From Clostridia bacterium (GTDB taxonomy: Bacteria; Bacillota; Clostridia; UMGS1883): a stretch of 64,000 bases of DNA. The stretch spans positions 4,417 through 68,416 of the forward strand of contig JAZLFH010000012.1 in NCBI GenBank assembly GCA_045615705.1, in the 5' to 3' direction. Shown piece by piece: positions 35,428 to 60,756 of this stretch (position 1 is its first letter; each line of letters starts with the position of its first letter). The translations under genes were made by a program, and so were the position numbers. The notes under the pieces are model-generated. The model made no database searches, was not told the DNA's origin, and saw nothing but the letters and a program-made list of their open reading frames with translations.

Positions 35428-35640
35428 CAACTAAATCCGTCCTTACGGACGGGTGAAATCGCCTGCGGCGATGAAATCTGCTTCGCAGATGAAATCCGAC
35501 TTCGTCGTGTTAAAGAGGACGGATTTAATTTCACCAAAGCCGAAGGCTTTGATTTCATCCAAAACAAGTTTTGGATTTCACCGTGACGGAGTCACGATTT
35601 CATTAATAATAACAGATATCTATATTGTCTACGATTTTCA
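35423..35640 (+). repeat. modular word/mini-hairpin array, left inverted copy (trails tRNA-Cys)
   Basis: The words GTGAAATC and GATGAAATC(x2), then ATTTCACC, GATTTCATC, GATTTCAC and GATTTCAT, alternate with short hairpins. It is the reverse complement of 36278-36448. Confidence 0.75.
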
Positions 35641-36277: not shown

Positions 36278-36448
36278 AAAAATCGTGTATGATATAGATA
36301 TCCGATTATTTTTATGAAATCGTGGCTTTGCCACGGTGAAATTAAATCCGTCCTCTTTAACCCGACGAAGTCGGATTTCATCTGCGATAGCAGATTTCAT
36401 CGCCGCAGGCAATTTCACCCGTCCGATAGGACGGATTTAGTTGAAAAA
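36278..36448 (-). repeat. modular word/mini-hairpin array, right inverted copy (trails the displaced tRNA-Arg 3' fragment)
   Basis: Its reverse complement aligns with 35423-35640, apart from a 47-nt module indel and loop or compensatory changes. Confidence 0.75.
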
Positions 36449-36476
36449 AGCACCGACAAAGTCGATGCTTTTTTCA

Positions 36477-36494
36477 TGGCGTGCCATGAGGGAT
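36477..36494 (-). other. duplicated 3'-terminal 18 nt of tRNA-Arg (att-like direct repeat)
   Basis: TGGCGTGCCATGAGGGAT is identical to 36675-36692, which is the 3' end of the intact tRNA-Arg. Confidence 0.75.
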
Positions 36495-36674
36495 ACAGAT
36501 GCTACGCATCTTGCGTGCTTGCCCACCCAAATGCTTCGCATTTCGGTACCGGGCTTTGCACCAACTTCGCTAAAAACGGTTATCAACCGTTTTTTTAACG
36601 CTCGTTGCCCTCTCAGGGTTTAAGTCCCAATATAGAAACATTAAAGCAGAGAACATAAAATGTTCTCTGCTTTT
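36495..36674. mobile_element. 180-bp insert between tRNA-Arg and its displaced 3' fragment (remnant or miniature integrative element?)
   Basis: It is bounded by the 18-nt direct repeat. It contains its own terminator next to the tRNA and further mini-hairpins (AGATGC-TAC-GCATCT, AAATGC-TTC-GCATTT). It has no ORF. Confidence 0.35.
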
Positions 36675-36751
36675 TGGCGTGCCATGAGGGATTCGAACCC
36701 CCGACCTTATGGTCCGTAGCCATACGCTCTATCCAGCTGAGCTAATGGCAC
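36675..36751 (-). tRNA. tRNA-Arg (ACG)
   Basis: The minus strand reads GTGCCATTAGCTCAGCTGGATAGAGC...CTACGGA...GGTTCGAATCCCTCATGGCACGCCA. Confidence 0.95.
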
Positions 36752-57381: not shown

Positions 57382-57456
57382 ATGCCTGTGGCGTATTTCA
57401 TGTTGTTAAGCATTTCACTGCGGAGCAATTCCGCAAATCCGACAGAATTTATTTCG
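57382..57456 (+). repeat. word/mini-hairpin array copy on the left flank of the R-M island
   Basis: The sequence is ATGCCTGTGGCGTATTTCA..GCATTTCAC..AAATCCGA..ATTTATTTCG. It parallels 60483-60541 in the same orientation. Confidence 0.6.
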
Positions 57457-57488
57457 TTTTTTCTGAAAAAGGCGATCAATTTCAATAC

Positions 57489-57643
57489 AAATGCACCCCA
57501 CGGTTTTTTGGGGTGCATTTGTCAGTTTGCCGGGGTGCATCGTGGGAAATTGGGTGCATTTGTATTAAAAGTGGAGTTCATCTTGAAAAACGGGCATCAT
57601 TTCACACGATTACTCATTTAATGTAAAATTAGTTTCGGTGCAT
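57489..57643 (+). repeat. 12-bp perfect hairpin followed by phased GGTGCAT direct repeats
   Basis: The hairpin is AAATGCACCCCA/TGGGGTGCATTT. GGTGCAT occurs at 57512, 57534, 57553 and 57637, with degenerate copies near 57575 and 57594. Confidence 0.55.
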
Positions 57644-57738: not shown

Positions 57739-59274
57739 ATGAAAGCAAATTATAACAAGTTATTAAAAATGCTTATTGACCGGAAAATGACCAAAACCGA
57801 CCTTCGTGAGCAGGCTAAAATCAGTTCAAGCACTCTTGCAAAAATCGGAAAAGAAGAAATGGTAAGTTCCGATGTTCTGACAAAAATTTGTAATGTGCTT
57901 TCTTGTGATATCGGTGATATCGTTGAACTTGTCAGAGATGAAAATGAAGAATACGAAGTAATCAATTCTCCGGGTAAATTAAAAGTTGTTTCGTTGTTTT
58001 CCGGTGCCGGTGGTATGGATTTAGGATTTATTAATGCCGGTTTTGAAATTATTTGGGCAAACGACTTTTTTCAAGAAGCCGTTGCTTCATATCGCAAAAA
58101 TATTGGTAAACATATGATACACGGAGATATCACAAAAATTAAAAACGAAGATATCCCCAACGGTGCGGATGTAATAATCGGGGGTTTTCCTTGCCAAGGT
58201 TTTTCGGTTGCCAACACCAGGCGTTCAATGGAAGACAAGCGTAATTTCTTATATAAAGAAATGCTTAGAATAATTAAAGATAAAAAGCCAAAATTCTTTG
58301 TAGCTGAAAATGTAAAAGGTATTTTGTCAATTGAAAACGGTAAAGTTTTTGAGATGATAAAGTCGGATTTTGAAAATTTAGGTTATGATGTTGAACCAAG
58401 GGTTTTGAATGCAGCTGAATACGGTGTGGCTCAAGCAAGAGAACGAGTTGTAATTATCGGAAACAGATTGGGAATAGAGAATCCTTTCCCCGCAAAAACC
58501 CATTATCTTCCCGGATTTGAAGACAAAAAATTGTTTCCTGCATTTACGACGGAACAGGCTATTGGTTTCTTGTCTAATATAAAAATATCTAACAAGCCTA
58601 AAACTATCAAAATTGAAGATTTGAAAAAGCACATAAAAGCAACGGGTATTAAAGACGAAGATGGATTTTTTGAAATACTTGGAGTAGATAAAAATTGCAA
58701 TGAAATCTCAATTACAAATCATATTGCTTCCGAAAATGTAGCAGATACATTTTGGGGAAGAGAGTATGAAGTAAATCAGCATGACATTTGTGATTACTTG
58801 AGATTTTGGAGAGATAAAGCCGGTTGGACAACTAAAAAGGTTGATGAGCATTTTGGATATTCTTACACAGCCGGACATTGGTTTAGAAAAGATAACAATT
58901 CCGGAAGTATACCGAGTCCGGAAGATTGGTGGGAACTCAAAAAAATCTTTGGATTTGATGATAAATACGATAAAGCCGTTACCACTCTTGTAGAAAAAGA
59001 AATAAAATTTGAACAGTCTTTGAGAATTACCAACTGGGATAGGCCGAGCGATACAATTACGGCAACAAGCCCGGAAATTCATGTTAATAAAAAAAGAAGA
59101 TTAAGTGCAAGGGAATGTGCAATTCTTCAGTCTTTCCCTGTTACATATGAATTTACGGGAAGCCTTAATAAAATGTATACACAAATCGGCAATGCTGTGC
59201 CGGTTAAATTGGCAACTAAAATAGCAACAGGAATAAAAGATGCAATAGAAAAAAATAATGAGAGTGAAAAATAA
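57739..59274 (+). CDS. DNA (cytosine-5)-methyltransferase with an N-terminal XRE-type HTH domain
   Basis: The HTH reads LREQAKISSSTLAKIGKEEMVSSDVLTKICNVLSCDIGDI. The m5C motifs are I FSGAGG, IV GFPCQGFS, VI ENV, VIII QARERV, IX RRLSARECAILQSFP and X GNAVPV. The variable region between VIII and IX is long. Confidence 0.9.
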   Translation: MKANYNKLLKMLIDRKMTKTDLREQAKISSSTLAKIGKEEMVSSDVLTKICNVLSCDIGDIVELVRDENEEYEVINSPGKLKVVSLFSGAGGMDLGFINAGFEIIWANDFFQEAVASYRKNIGKHMIHGDITKIKNEDIPNGADVIIGGFPCQGFSVANTRRSMEDKRNFLYKEMLRIIKDKKPKFFVAENVKGILSIENGKVFEMIKSDFENLGYDVEPRVLNAAEYGVAQARERVVIIGNRLGIENPFPAKTHYLPGFEDKKLFPAFTTEQAIGFLSNIKISNKPKTIKIEDLKKHIKATGIKDEDGFFEILGVDKNCNEISITNHIASENVADTFWGREYEVNQHDICDYLRFWRDKAGWTTKKVDEHFGYSYTAGHWFRKDNNSGSIPSPEDWWELKKIFGFDDKYDKAVTTLVEKEIKFEQSLRITNWDRPSDTITATSPEIHVNKKRRLSARECAILQSFPVTYEFTGSLNKMYTQIGNAVPVKLATKIATGIKDAIEKNNESEK

Positions 59275-59295
59275 TTTCACTCTCATAGGTAGAAT

Positions 59296-60105
59296 TTATT
59301 CTTCTGCAGAAACATCAAAATTATCAAGATAGAATTGAAGTTTTCTTTTAACATAGTCGGACATATCGGGATTTTTATGTATTATCCGAACTCTTTTCTT
59401 GCTCCCCGGTAAAAGTTCAAATGTTGGAATTGCACTAAAATTATAGCGTGCTTTACCTGGATTTTTACCTGCTTTTAGCGGTCTAGACCCATAATGCTCT
59501 TGTAATTTACCGTTTGGCAAACTCATAATAGAGATAAGTTCACAACGCTGTGTTACGGAACTGTTTAATAAGCAGACAAAATAAGTTAAAGTAATCTTCT
59601 TATCACCATTTGTTTTTGTATAAAACTTCGGCAAGTTCGGACGGTACTCTTCATGATGTTCATTGGGCCTGCCGGCATTTTTTATTATTGTCCCGGCATA
59701 TGAATTTTGATTTTCACCAACAAAAATACAAGTATTGAAATCTCCTATGTTATCTTGCGATGTTGTGCCTTCACTTGTTGTAACACTTTTTAAATCAATA
59801 TGAATATAAGCATCATCAACCTCGAAAAACAGGTCTGAACTAACAGGACATGAATTGGGTTTTCCGGCGATTTTTCCGTTTAATAAAGCATATACGATTC
59901 TCTCACTACCGACATCAAATAATGAAATGCCACCGTCATCATTTCCATACAAACCTTGCCAGTCGTTCCTTATGTCATCCATCGACAGCATACCGGCAAC
60001 TATTTCATCTTCGACAAATTTTAAGAAATACCAATATTTCATTAAATATTTATATTCAAGGGCTTCCAATTCTTCAAGAGAAATATTTGAATTATCAAAC
60101 GACAT
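59296..60105 (-). CDS. candidate type II restriction endonuclease (partner of the m5C methyltransferase)
   Basis: It lies convergent to the MTase, 21 bp away. It has a PD-(D/E)XK-like segment SSDLFFEVDDAYIHIDLK. I recognise no family. The third ATG (60105) has GGAG at good spacing. Confidence 0.5.
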   Translation of the reverse strand: MSFDNSNISLEELEALEYKYLMKYWYFLKFVEDEIVAGMLSMDDIRNDWQGLYGNDDGGISLFDVGSERIVYALLNGKIAGKPNSCPVSSDLFFEVDDAYIHIDLKSVTTSEGTTSQDNIGDFNTCIFVGENQNSYAGTIIKNAGRPNEHHEEYRPNLPKFYTKTNGDKKITLTYFVCLLNSSVTQRCELISIMSLPNGKLQEHYGSRPLKAGKNPGKARYNFSAIPTFELLPGSKKRVRIIHKNPDMSDYVKRKLQFYLDNFDVSAEE

Positions 60106-60205
60106 AAACACCATCTCCATTAGTATATGTAGATAATTTTATCATATAATGTCGATTTTGTCTATAAAAATTTGGGTATGTGATTTTAATAAAAAAATAA
60201 TGCAA

Positions 60206-60304
60206 TGATGTGATGTGTTCCATTCACTCACCGTAGGTGAACATCATGTCCGAAGGACACATCACACACGAAGTGTGCATCATGTTCCGTGAGGAACACA
60301 TCGT
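60206..60304 (-). repeat. variant word/mini-hairpin array (CATCA/GATG words)
   Basis: The hairpins are TCACC-GTA-GGTGA, TGTCC-GAA-GGACA, CACAC-GAA-GTGTG and TGTTCC-GTGA-GGAACA. They are separated by ACATCA(T/C) words. The outer pairing is GATGTGTTCC/GGAACACATC. Confidence 0.6.
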
Positions 60305-60418
60305 TCAAAAAAGTCCCTTTTGTTTTATCACATAGTTTTAAAATATCAACGAAAAAGACATTGATAAATTTTTAAGTTTAGATTCAGCCATGTTGTTATC
60401 ACCTCAAATATTTTATTT

Positions 60419-60541
60419 AGTGAAATATCGGCTTTGCGGATGTGAAATGAAATAAGTCCTGTTACGCGCGCAGGCATTTCACACGCCGTAGGCGTATTTC
60501 ACGCACGAAGTGCATTTCACAAATCCGAAGGATTTATTTCG
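60419..60541 (-). repeat. word/mini-hairpin array trailing tRNA-Tyr and its terminator
   Basis: The minus strand has GTGAAATG, GTGAAATA and GTGAAATG, followed by CATTTCAC and ATTTCAC. The hairpins are AATCC-TTC-GGATT, GCAC-TTC-GTGC and ACGCC-TAC-GGCGT. Confidence 0.7.
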
Positions 60542-60544
60542 CTT

Positions 60545-60585
60545 AAAAAACCTCTTTTGTCTTGGTAGACAAAAGAGGTTTTTTT
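60545..60585 (-). terminator. terminator downstream of tRNA-Tyr
   Basis: The sequence is AAAAAACCTCTTTTGTC-TTGGTA-GACAAAAGAGGTTTTTTT. Confidence 0.6.
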
Positions 60586-60588
60586 ACA

Positions 60589-60673
60589 TGGTGGAGGAGG
60601 GTGGATTCGGACCACCGAAGTCATAGACAACAGATTTACAGTCTGCCCCCTTTGGCCGCTCGGGAACTCCTCC
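60589..60673 (-). tRNA. tRNA-Tyr (GTA), long variable arm
   Basis: The minus strand reads GGAGGAGTTCCCGAGCGGCCAAAGGGGGCAGACTGTAAATCTGT...GGTCCGAATCCACCCTCCTCCACCA. Confidence 0.95.
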
Positions 60674-60680
60674 ATAAAAA

Positions 60681-60756
60681 TGGAGCTGGTGATAGGACTC
60701 GAACCTACGACCTGCTGATTACAAATCAGCTGCTCTACCTATTGAGCTACACCAGC
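60681..60756 (-). tRNA. tRNA-Thr (TGT)
   Basis: The minus strand reads GCTGGTGTAGCTCAATAGGTAGAGCAGCTGATTTGTAATCAGCAGGTCGTAGGTTCGAGTCCTATCACCAGCTCCA. Confidence 0.95.

Follow-up and report, generated by a model that had tools for sequence, protein, structure and literature searches.

A 64,000-nucleotide (nt) stretch of a Clostridia metagenome bin (GenBank assembly GCA_045615705.1, contig JAZLFH010000012.1, positions 4,417 to 68,416; hereafter the window) carries, on the minus strand behind tRNA-Tyr at positions 60,419 to 60,541, an array of 7-nt words and short hairpins that, judging by its sequence, is very probably a copy of the Gut-1 motif and the remains of a decayed cassette. Described in 2010 on the basis of 43 human-gut metagenome sequences of uncultivated gut bacteria, Gut-1 comprised a forward arm only, had no organism, context, or function, and was judged 'RNA: yes, covariation' (Weinberg et al., Genome Biol 11:R31, PMC2864571). 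The literature on Gut-1 that we found gives no function, and its sole other mention is in a folding benchmark. The motif itself is known; the two arms of the unit, a long-range helix, the tRNA 3'-end context, the link to a protein family, and the placement in named genome bins are new here.

When compared with the Rfam covariance model of Gut-1 RNA (RF01706; curated gathering cut-off, 50 bits), the tRNA-Tyr array scores 75.5 bits (E = 2.5e-13) over the whole model (positions 1-77). It has the three consecutive hairpins and, flanking and between them, the four (U/G)GAAAU linkers that define the motif; its forward arm and Gut-1 are the same thing. The original prediction, made from the letters alone, had taken such arrays for a real family in which the words and the loop type are conserved and the stems are free, and the Rfam match bears this out. 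Its reading of the minus strand after tRNA-Tyr and the terminator was letter-perfect, the side hairpins have TTC and TAC triloops as it described, and of the forward GTGAAAT words followed by inverted ATTTCAC words, we located three forward and two inverted ones. The inverted words fall outside the Rfam model. The prediction did not contain the published name of the motif, its truncation at this locus, the long-range helix between the 5' end of the unit and its middle, or the fact that a 17-codon open reading frame (ORF) beyond the array is the stump of a gene.

The anatomy of a complete unit was read by eye from 29 oriented, nonidentical units, with the orientation set by the tRNA. The Rfam model spans half of a unit of ~190 nt. 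The common plan runs from the CCA end of the tRNA through a terminator and some four bases to the forward arm of words and hairpins (w0 H1 w1 H2 w2 H3 w3 H4), then to a middle strand, and last to an inverted arm with the plan ATTTCAY H5 ATTTCAY H6 ATTTCAY H7 ATTTCAY. Among units, each of the hairpins is kept by compensatory changes. The middle strand repeats the 3' half of H1, continues with ATTT, and, in the units scored in register, can pair with w0 and the 5' half of H1 over 10 to 15 nt. This long-range helix (P1) excludes the local hairpin H1, which is the sole conformer in the Rfam model. By eye, its sequences covary between subfamilies (GGATTTATTTC, GACGGATTTA, GGCGTATTT, GGTGGATTTA, GGCAAATTT, GGCGAATTT, and GGAACGAATTT), and the longest complementary run averages 11.1 nt in own pairs versus 8.7 nt in cross pairs, a weak control. 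The nested pairings GTGAAATG:CATTTCAC and GTGAAATA:TATTTCAC that had been proposed for the array do exist in the minimum-energy fold of the tRNA-Tyr copy, but they compete with the better-supported long-range helix.

At tRNA-Tyr (Table 1), the array stands a few nucleotides past the terminator with the tRNA pointing in: the gene is followed by a 41-nt terminator, 4 nt (3 nt from the T-run to the annotated w0), and then the array. The terminator resembles the native tRNA-Tyr terminators of array-free related genomes (comparison with L072 and L074). The copy follows the two-armed plan in truncated form. Its forward arm is complete; the P1 strand AGGACTTATTTC is complementary to GAAATAAATCC(T), which stands at the 5' end of that arm, at 11 of 12 positions, with one mismatch; and CTTATTTC stands between the poor fourth hairpin and the first ATTTCAC. 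What remains of the inverted arm is two words and one hairpin, itself with one mismatch (ATCCGC-aaa-GCCGAT). Compared by eye with the sister copy behind tRNA-Lys (source genome, contig C33, unit 1) and with L022, the inverted arm has lost two hairpin-plus-word modules. Past the last word, where an intact gene of the four-helix-bundle (4HB) family PF05635/TIGR02436 would stand 20 to 60 nt away, only a Shine-Dalgarno sequence and 17 codons are present. The best match of this ORF, MAESKLKNLSMSFSLIF, is the N terminus MAESKLRNLSVEFSV of a same-subfamily cassette gene in L022 (local score, 55; shuffled mean, 23; none of 500 shuffles as high). In two related genomes (G030 and G014), tRNA-Tyr is followed by an intact array, then a predicted promoter, and then an intact 4HB gene.

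Table 1. Coordinates (window numbering) of the tRNA-Tyr trailer, its surroundings, and two sister units.
Feature	Position	Strand	Basis or detail
tRNA-Thr(tgt)	60681-60756	-	ARAGORN; Rfam tRNA, 76 bits
tRNA-Tyr(gta), last gene of the operon; trailer begins at its CCA end	60589-60673	-	ARAGORN; Rfam tRNA, 48.5 bits
Intrinsic terminator	60545-60585	-	Sequence: A-run, 14-bp hairpin, T-run
Forward arm, Rfam Gut-1 match	60471-60544	-	cmscan, 75.5 bits, model positions 1-77
w0	60536-60541	-	CGAAAT
H1	60521-60535	-	AAATCC-ttc-GGATTT
w1	60514-60520	-	GTGAAAT
H2	60503-60513	-	GCAC-ttc-GTGC
w2	60496-60502	-	GTGAAAT
H3	60483-60495	-	ACGCC-tac-GGCGT
w3	60476-60482	-	GTGAAAT
Degenerate H4 overlapping the 3' strand of P1	60449-60475	-	H4, 60457-60475; P1 strand AGGACTTATTTC, 60449-60460
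Inverted-arm remnant	60420-60448	-	ATTTCAC, 60442-60448; hairpin, 60427-60441; ATTTCAC, 60420-60426
Stump of 4HB (PF05635) gene	60338-60405	-	Shine-Dalgarno GAGGTGA, 60399-60405; 17-codon ORF MAESKLKNLSMSFSLIF, 60338-60391
Second decayed cassette head	60205-60323	-	Rfam Gut-1, 29.6 bits, below cut-off; half terminator, 60303-60323; forward arm, 60205-60302
Convergent type II restriction-modification pair	57739-60120	.	ORFs, TIGR00675, PADLOC
m5C methyltransferase	57739-59274	+	TIGR00675 dcm, 260 bits; PADLOC MTase_II, 335 bits
Endonuclease candidate	59296-60120	-	PADLOC REase_II, 24.9 bits (weak)
Degenerate forward arm, tRNA-Tyr subfamily (GAAATAAATTC...GGATTTATTCC)	57382-57459	-	Rfam Gut-1, 36.7 bits at C12:61806-61875
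Sister unit, other subfamily, both arms complete, directly behind tRNA-Cys	35428-35604	+	Rfam Gut-1, 67.5 bits
Sister unit behind tRNA-Arg(acg), with ~175-nt inserted element between	36290-36443	-	Rfam Gut-1, 60.9 bits

The units of the source genome fall into two subfamilies, one behind the Cys, Asn, Trp, and Arg-acg tRNAs and the other behind those for Tyr, Arg-ccg, and Lys and on contig C19. This explains why the stems of different loci had been described as unrelated, which holds between the tRNA-Cys-type and tRNA-Tyr-type subfamilies but not within a subfamily, where stems are clearly homologous. The alternative against which the original prediction had argued, namely that the arrays are chance palindromes in AT-rich intergenic DNA, draws only on the small size of each hairpin, and its probability is negligible. 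Five matches to the spaced three-word pattern are present in the window, all of them in the three arrays, and 100 shuffles gave not even one; GTGAAAT alone occurs 31 times, compared with 16 ± 3.8 expected. Whether folded as RNA (z = -3.0) or as the DNA of the other strand (z = -4.3), the tRNA-Tyr stretch is more stable than each of 200 shuffles. Together with the Rfam E-value and dozens of copies in related genomes, the shuffles refute a chance origin.

Gut-1 copies are docked behind tRNA genes. The source genome is a metagenome bin of 1.36 Mb (37.6% G+C, 82% complete) with 18 Gut-1 matches, often a plus-strand match followed by a minus-strand match. The layout recurs at other tRNA operons: 8 of the 29 operon 3' flanks carry such an array, and 8 of the 12 Gut-1 loci follow an operon end by no more than 350 nt (p = 5e-15). 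We also parsed 61 two-armed units from the source genome, related genomes, and public genome contigs. A tRNA lies within 200 nt and points toward the unit in 31 of them and points away in none; seven more are at contig ends, where many array copies are found. Many different tRNAs are used, and near-identical terminator-plus-array heads stand behind different ones. In the source genome, the homology between the Cys and Asn units (the A1 pair) includes the terminator and begins right after CCA. The flank of tRNA-Thr/Tyr varies among relatives: most have a plain terminator and then the next gene, four have Gut-1 units, and others have different repeats. Gut-1 matches are present in 24 of 41 related genomes. 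The carriers are metagenome-assembled Clostridia (Acutalibacteraceae, Oscillospiraceae, and Christensenellaceae), some from the gut of roe deer, goat, sheep, or cattle, and no true unit from a cultured isolate is among the carriers found.

The arrays are also linked to a gene. In 14 of the 61 units, a gene of the PF05635/TIGR02436 family (the Avd/23S rRNA intervening-sequence 4HB family) starts 21 to 57 nt past the last word, always on the inverted-arm side and reading away. Conversely, 16 of the 20 4HB genes in the sampled DNA adjoin a unit (14 found by the parser, plus L071 and L043 by eye). Two of the three PF05635 genes of the source genome abut arrays, 21 and 57 nt past the last word, behind tRNA-Asn and tRNA-Lys. 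Among the 41 genomes, 22 have both Gut-1 and the gene, two have only Gut-1, three have only the gene, and 14 have neither (Fisher p = 2e-6, not corrected for phylogeny). The linked protein is a TIGR02436 "four helix bundle protein" (97 bits) of ~115 amino acids (aa). A sequence profile of the linked proteins reaches the solved homologs 2RLD and 2GSC, with five chains each, but not Avd, the link to which comes from the literature. No PADLOC model matches the 4HB protein, and our literature search returned nothing on stand-alone PF05635 proteins together with repeats. The third PF05635 gene of the source genome (C12:461-743, ~4 kb before the start of the window) has an in-frame TAG and has lost its N-terminal third, which is replaced by a ~175-nt tRNA-end repeat described below; by eye, it is closest to the proteins associated with GCTAAAT words.

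A further 40 PF05635 genes were fetched from relatives, each with 900 nt of flank. They have the same word-and-hairpin grammar upstream in other dialects: GCTAAAT/ATTTAGC, GTGRTAT/ATAYCAC, ATGAAGY/RCTTCAT, ATGAATT/AATTCAT, and ACATCAT/ATGATGT. A hairpin-free two-armed form, which is the commonest other tRNA trailer in the source genome, is built on ATTCAT/AATGAATAAT words in relatives and heads a distinct 4HB clade there, and simple tandem repeats of 7 to 8 nt, such as AATGCAGA four times, abut the ribosome-binding site. Word type tracks the 4HB protein clade almost perfectly. On a quick maximum-likelihood tree of 49 proteins with nine word classes, the word class changes 9 times, against a minimum of 8 and a shuffled mean of 33.4, and none of 200 shuffles was as low; part of this signal is to be expected from linkage alone. 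Up to four word classes coexist in a single genome. The Gut-1 model also matches arrays of GTGGTAT words above the cut-off (53.7 bits at G036:C29:4303-4926, L336); Rfam Gut-1 matches therefore lump several word types.

Taken together, our preferred explanation is that Gut-1 is the noncoding head of a cassette whose own protein reads its words and regulates its own gene, and that the tRNA-Tyr array is a decayed copy of it; we consider this explanation as a whole probable, if far from assured. A complete cassette comprises, in order, a terminator, a forward arm of four GTGAAAT-type words with short perfect hairpins, the back-pairing strand, an inverted arm of four ATTTCAC words with hairpins, and a predicted promoter with the ~115-aa 4HB gene, and gut Clostridia carry it directly behind tRNA genes. 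The 7-nt words may be recognition units for a cognate pentameric 4HB protein, one word per protomer, with the hairpins serving as compact spacers, devoid of sequence information, that would hold the words exposed and in register. Two observations exceed what linkage would yield: all of the approximately eight words of an array change together, and the 4HB gene is the sole gene common to all cassettes. Both make the 4HB protein the putative reader, a step to which we give an even chance. Because the array lies at the promoter of the gene or inside its 5' untranslated region (UTR), the complex would most likely set the expression of that gene, and it would also mark the cassette. Most arrays are solitary, often with a shared ~30-nt tail, and would be nonautonomous or decayed copies. 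The tRNA-Tyr locus is very probably one such decayed cassette, with an intact forward arm, two inverted-arm modules lost, a gene stump, a second decayed head, and a restriction-modification pair behind. Its gene is dead, and its array could at most bind protein from the two intact copies elsewhere in the source genome, on contigs C33 (114 aa) and C5.

Several observations weigh against this explanation. About three quarters of the units have no adjoining gene, and no cognate gene was found for two further array dialects in the 82%-complete source genome. The co-diversification of words and proteins could reflect the mere physical linkage of neighboring DNA. The variable first and last bases (R/Y) of forward versus inverted words show no visible covariation by eye in several units, and across 23 full units the minimum-energy fold is sometimes the word-word zipper and sometimes the long-range helix, so that thermodynamics cannot decide; on these two grounds, a word-to-word zipper was set aside as the structure of the unit. 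The tRNA-docked arrays lie behind a terminator and upstream of a predicted promoter, and an RNA-level role needs read-through. All promoters in this work are predictions from matches to the -35/-10 consensus only. Finally, the mini-hairpin stems consist of 568 Watson-Crick, 4 G·T, and 4 A·C pairs (of 576), and such strand-symmetric perfect stems are not usual for an RNA made from one strand.

The last point bears on whether the active form is RNA or folded DNA. Over all dialects, the stems have 578 Watson-Crick, 5 G·T, and 5 A·C pairs (of 588). As a control, the hairpins of 85 terminators that directly follow tRNAs in this DNA have 711, 36, and 1, respectively. The G·T share differs between arrays and terminators (p = 5e-6), and the terminators are strand-asymmetric (p = 6e-10), whereas the arrays are not. 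Hairpin loops read TNC on one strand and GNA on the other, and GNA is a very stable type of DNA triloop. With regard to transcription, a promoter-like -35/-10 pair starts 1 to 15 nt past the last word in 8 of 12 Gut-1-type loci, which places the array of tRNA-docked types upstream of the promoter. On the RNA side, two Gut-1-type loci leave no space for a promoter, their start codon being only 20 nt from the last word, and words of the tandem-only form abut the Shine-Dalgarno sequence. The GCTAAAT and TGAATT dialects have a strong predicted promoter 8 to 27 nt upstream of the array and a last word 17 to 24 nt from the start codon; the array is thus a 5' UTR there. Since these transcribed dialects have equally perfect stems, stem perfection is not proof of a DNA role. 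We regard RNA and folded DNA as roughly even candidates for the active form. The Rfam type 'Gene; sRNA' may be wrong for Gut-1, and the evidence for an RNA role is weaker than this label suggests.

A different purpose would follow if the arrays were structure-defined sites of single-stranded or cruciform DNA for docking or recombination, similar in logic to integron attC sites or REP elements, through which a host or unlinked enzyme would lodge cassettes behind tRNA genes with the 4HB protein as an accessory. This shares protein binding with our preferred explanation and differs from it on the molecule and the purpose. The pattern of stems and loops just described is what it would lead one to expect, as are the position of the array upstream of a predicted promoter in tRNA-docked types, units of the A1 pair that begin at the CCA end, near-identical heads behind different tRNAs, many copies at contig ends, and varied flanked cargo (the restriction-modification pair, three unrelated genes in L164, and a candidate GNAT ORF in G030). 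Yet stems of 4 to 6 bp are too short to extrude unaided, two dialects that are clearly transcribed as 5' UTRs from predicted promoters keep the same perfect stems, and Avd, the nearest characterized homolog, binds RNA. Traces of an enzyme or of its action are also few: the few cassettes inspected in detail showed no gene for a recombinase or transposase, the arrays do not follow the distribution of Y1 transposases, tRNA 3' ends are not duplicated past the arrays, and the terminator is duplicated at only two loci. We consider a folded-DNA site unlikely, while giving it real weight.

The same evidence on transcription and stems speaks to the Rfam classification of Gut-1 as a free-standing small RNA. 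Such an RNA, produced along with the tRNA operon or after it, would work in trans and independently of the 4HB gene, for example as a sponge for an RNA-binding protein. The original covariation judgment, the compensatory changes that keep every hairpin, the location behind highly transcribed genes, and the conserved single-stranded linkers between hairpins, which resemble those of protein-sponge RNAs, are consistent with it. In contrast, an efficient-looking terminator separates tRNA and array at every locus, and the Rfam model describes half of a unit, the second arm of which gives an opposite-strand match to it. The stems lack a G·U signature, and linkage to one protein family is tight, with co-occurrence at the genome level. 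A scan of the 4HB-linked Gut-1-type arrays, which did not extend to the tRNA-docked ones, found no upstream promoter. An independent small RNA seems improbable to us. Even less probable is a passive back-up terminator or insulator that stops or processes tRNA read-through without a partner protein. Such a role would fit the position directly after terminators, the many GC-rich hairpins, and the strong fold, but the mini-hairpins have no U-runs, and invariant 7-nt words with an exact inversion in the second arm are needless for termination. Moreover, the grammar is also found apart from tRNAs, within 5' UTRs of 4HB genes, and a plain terminator suffices for most tRNA operons in relatives.

How the cassettes might move was approached through candidate mobilizers and insertion signatures. 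The Y1 transposase (PF01797) is absent from three array-rich genomes (the 82%-complete source genome, G012, and G034) and present in 10 of 17 array-free genomes (Fisher p = 0.15), and a RAYT/Y1 transposase was rejected as the mobilizer. A second copy of the last 20 nt of the tRNA was sought in the 30 kb downstream of every tRNA and was found at no Gut-1 unit; it occurs at three loci only, all with a different repeat ("family C"), and classical integrase-type insertion was rejected. Duplication of the terminator was likewise rejected as a target-site signature: the tRNA-Tyr island of G030 shows it, L164 shows it as a repeat of the whole unit, and 29 other loci do not show it. The G030 island (L071, 1190-1240 nt downstream of tRNA-Tyr) spans ~1.2 kb between two copies of the same 27-nt terminator hairpin; it contains the array, the 4HB gene, and a further ORF read as a candidate GNAT acetyltransferase, and the native terminator of sister genomes is gone. 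Phage carriage was set aside on the basis of a single true unit among the first 118 listed viral contigs that match the word pattern. That unit (L247:5024-5170; IMG/VR UViG 3300031867_000663) is a complete two-armed Gut-1 unit in high-G+C DNA beside a 477-aa ORF, a candidate terminase large subunit; four tandem GGTAACTTGCC repeats follow, and no tRNA or 4HB gene was seen adjoining it. A 40-nt probe from the gene neighboring the tRNA-Tyr locus had no match in metagenome contigs that would reveal empty and filled sites at the strain level, and exact-protein look-ups for the locus matched no other contig.

Avd forms a positively charged pentamer whose five protomers all grip a tetraloop-capped RNA hairpin through repeated use of the same residues (bioRxiv 10.1101/2023.10.23.563531). 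By analogy, repeated recognition of this kind by a pentamer is what we propose for the linked 4HB protein, which belongs to the same family; its partner, however, would be an array of words and mini-hairpins and not one long stem-loop. We saw no reverse transcriptase, template, or variable repeat of a diversity-generating retroelement in the cassettes that were read, although no search was aimed at them. Intervening sequences of 23S rRNA in Leptospira and Coxiella also encode PF05635 proteins; they are hairpin forming and sporadic and have no known mobility enzyme. They share with the cassettes the protein family and the attachment of an extra hairpin-forming element to a stable-RNA gene, but they lie inside the rRNA and are cut from the transcript, whereas the arrays, with their grammar of words and hairpins, lie behind the tRNA, past the terminator. 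REP/BIME elements with RAYT are likewise short, abundant, structure-conserved intergenic palindromes that occur near terminators and in inverted pairs. Each is one imperfect palindrome, however, whereas the arrays have many perfect mini-hairpins and invariant words strictly at tRNA 3' ends, with no Y1/RAYT in the three array-rich genomes named above. Nor, by their structure, are the arrays integron attC sites, which stand beside an integron integrase gene and have a long imperfect bottom-strand hairpin with extrahelical bases and R/L boxes in place of perfect mini-hairpins of 4 to 7 bp and words. In mechanism only, the proposed ring whose subunits would each read one short repeat beside a ribosome-binding site or promoter is analogous to TRAP, the 11-subunit ring that wraps RNA with evenly spaced triplet repeats in trp attenuation of Bacillus; the fold is unrelated, and there is no homology.

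Gut-1, in Rfam since 2010, and the PF05635 "23S rRNA intervening sequence protein" family, for longer and outside its Avd branch, have both been orphans. The tRNA position, the physical gene link, and the co-diversification of words and proteins across at least eight dialects tie the two together. If the pentamer reads the words, these would be small, orthogonal, naturally diversified protein-word pairs that may be useful as parts, and they would be informative on nucleic acid recognition by Avd-like proteins in retroelements. A more far-reaching view, which we hold only tentatively, is that stand-alone Avd/intervening-sequence-type 4HB pentamers are sequence-programmable nucleic acid-binding rings that form, with their arrays, a new class of recombinase-less selfish cassettes homing to the 3' ends of stable-RNA genes, with co-evolved, lineage-specific words of 7 to 8 nt and several orthogonal pairs per genome. 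If true, it would explain both the orphan Gut-1 motif and the 23S rRNA intervening-sequence proteins. For annotation, the units account for one class of repeats that break assemblies behind the tRNA genes of gut Clostridia.

The tRNA-Tyr locus is a clear example of cassette decay and cargo accumulation behind a tRNA. Beyond the gene stump lies a second decayed head, with half a terminator and then a forward arm with (A/G)TGATGT words, four mini-hairpins, and a closing strand, GGAACACATCACATCAT, but without an inverted arm; its full-length sister, with (A/G)TGATGT/ACATCAC words, is found behind tRNA-Leu(aag) on contig C36. The cargo, located between the decayed heads and a further degenerate arm, is a convergent pair of a 511-aa m5C methyltransferase fused to a helix-turn-helix domain and a 274-aa endonuclease candidate. 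The N-terminal helix-turn-helix of the methyltransferase is VanU/XRE-like (74 bits). The degenerate forward arm marks the far edge of the island, beside the terminator of a 459-aa ORF, and between it and the methyltransferase promoter (57489-57643, minus strand) are several ATGCACCC/GGTGCAT-type words and a 12-bp hairpin.

Two other repeats occupy tRNA 3' ends in the source genome. A second common trailer consists of a terminator, TTCACT/TTACTT-type words, a second copy of the 3' strand of the terminator, and complementary words, without mini-hairpins (C5:6821-, C53:26548-, C53:23817-, C58:17054-, C59:28457-, and C12:1-470, outside the window); the ATTCAT/AATGAATAAT form of relatives shares this layout, and no cognate 4HB gene for it was found in the 82%-complete source genome. 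The other is the ~175-nt repeat mentioned above (GGGAC..CCCTGAGAGGGC..CGATTGATAATCG..GGGTGGGCAAG..), which has no Rfam match and is inserted behind tRNA genes in the window (36470-36675, minus strand) and behind tRNA-Leu(caa) on C18, tRNA-Arg(tct) on C29, and tRNA-Pro(cgg) on C5. The three copies tested carry at their end, at an offset of 176 to 178, a second copy of the last 18 nt of the particular tRNA that they follow, and the sequence suggests a miniature element inserting into the T-loop/3' end of tRNA genes with target duplication.

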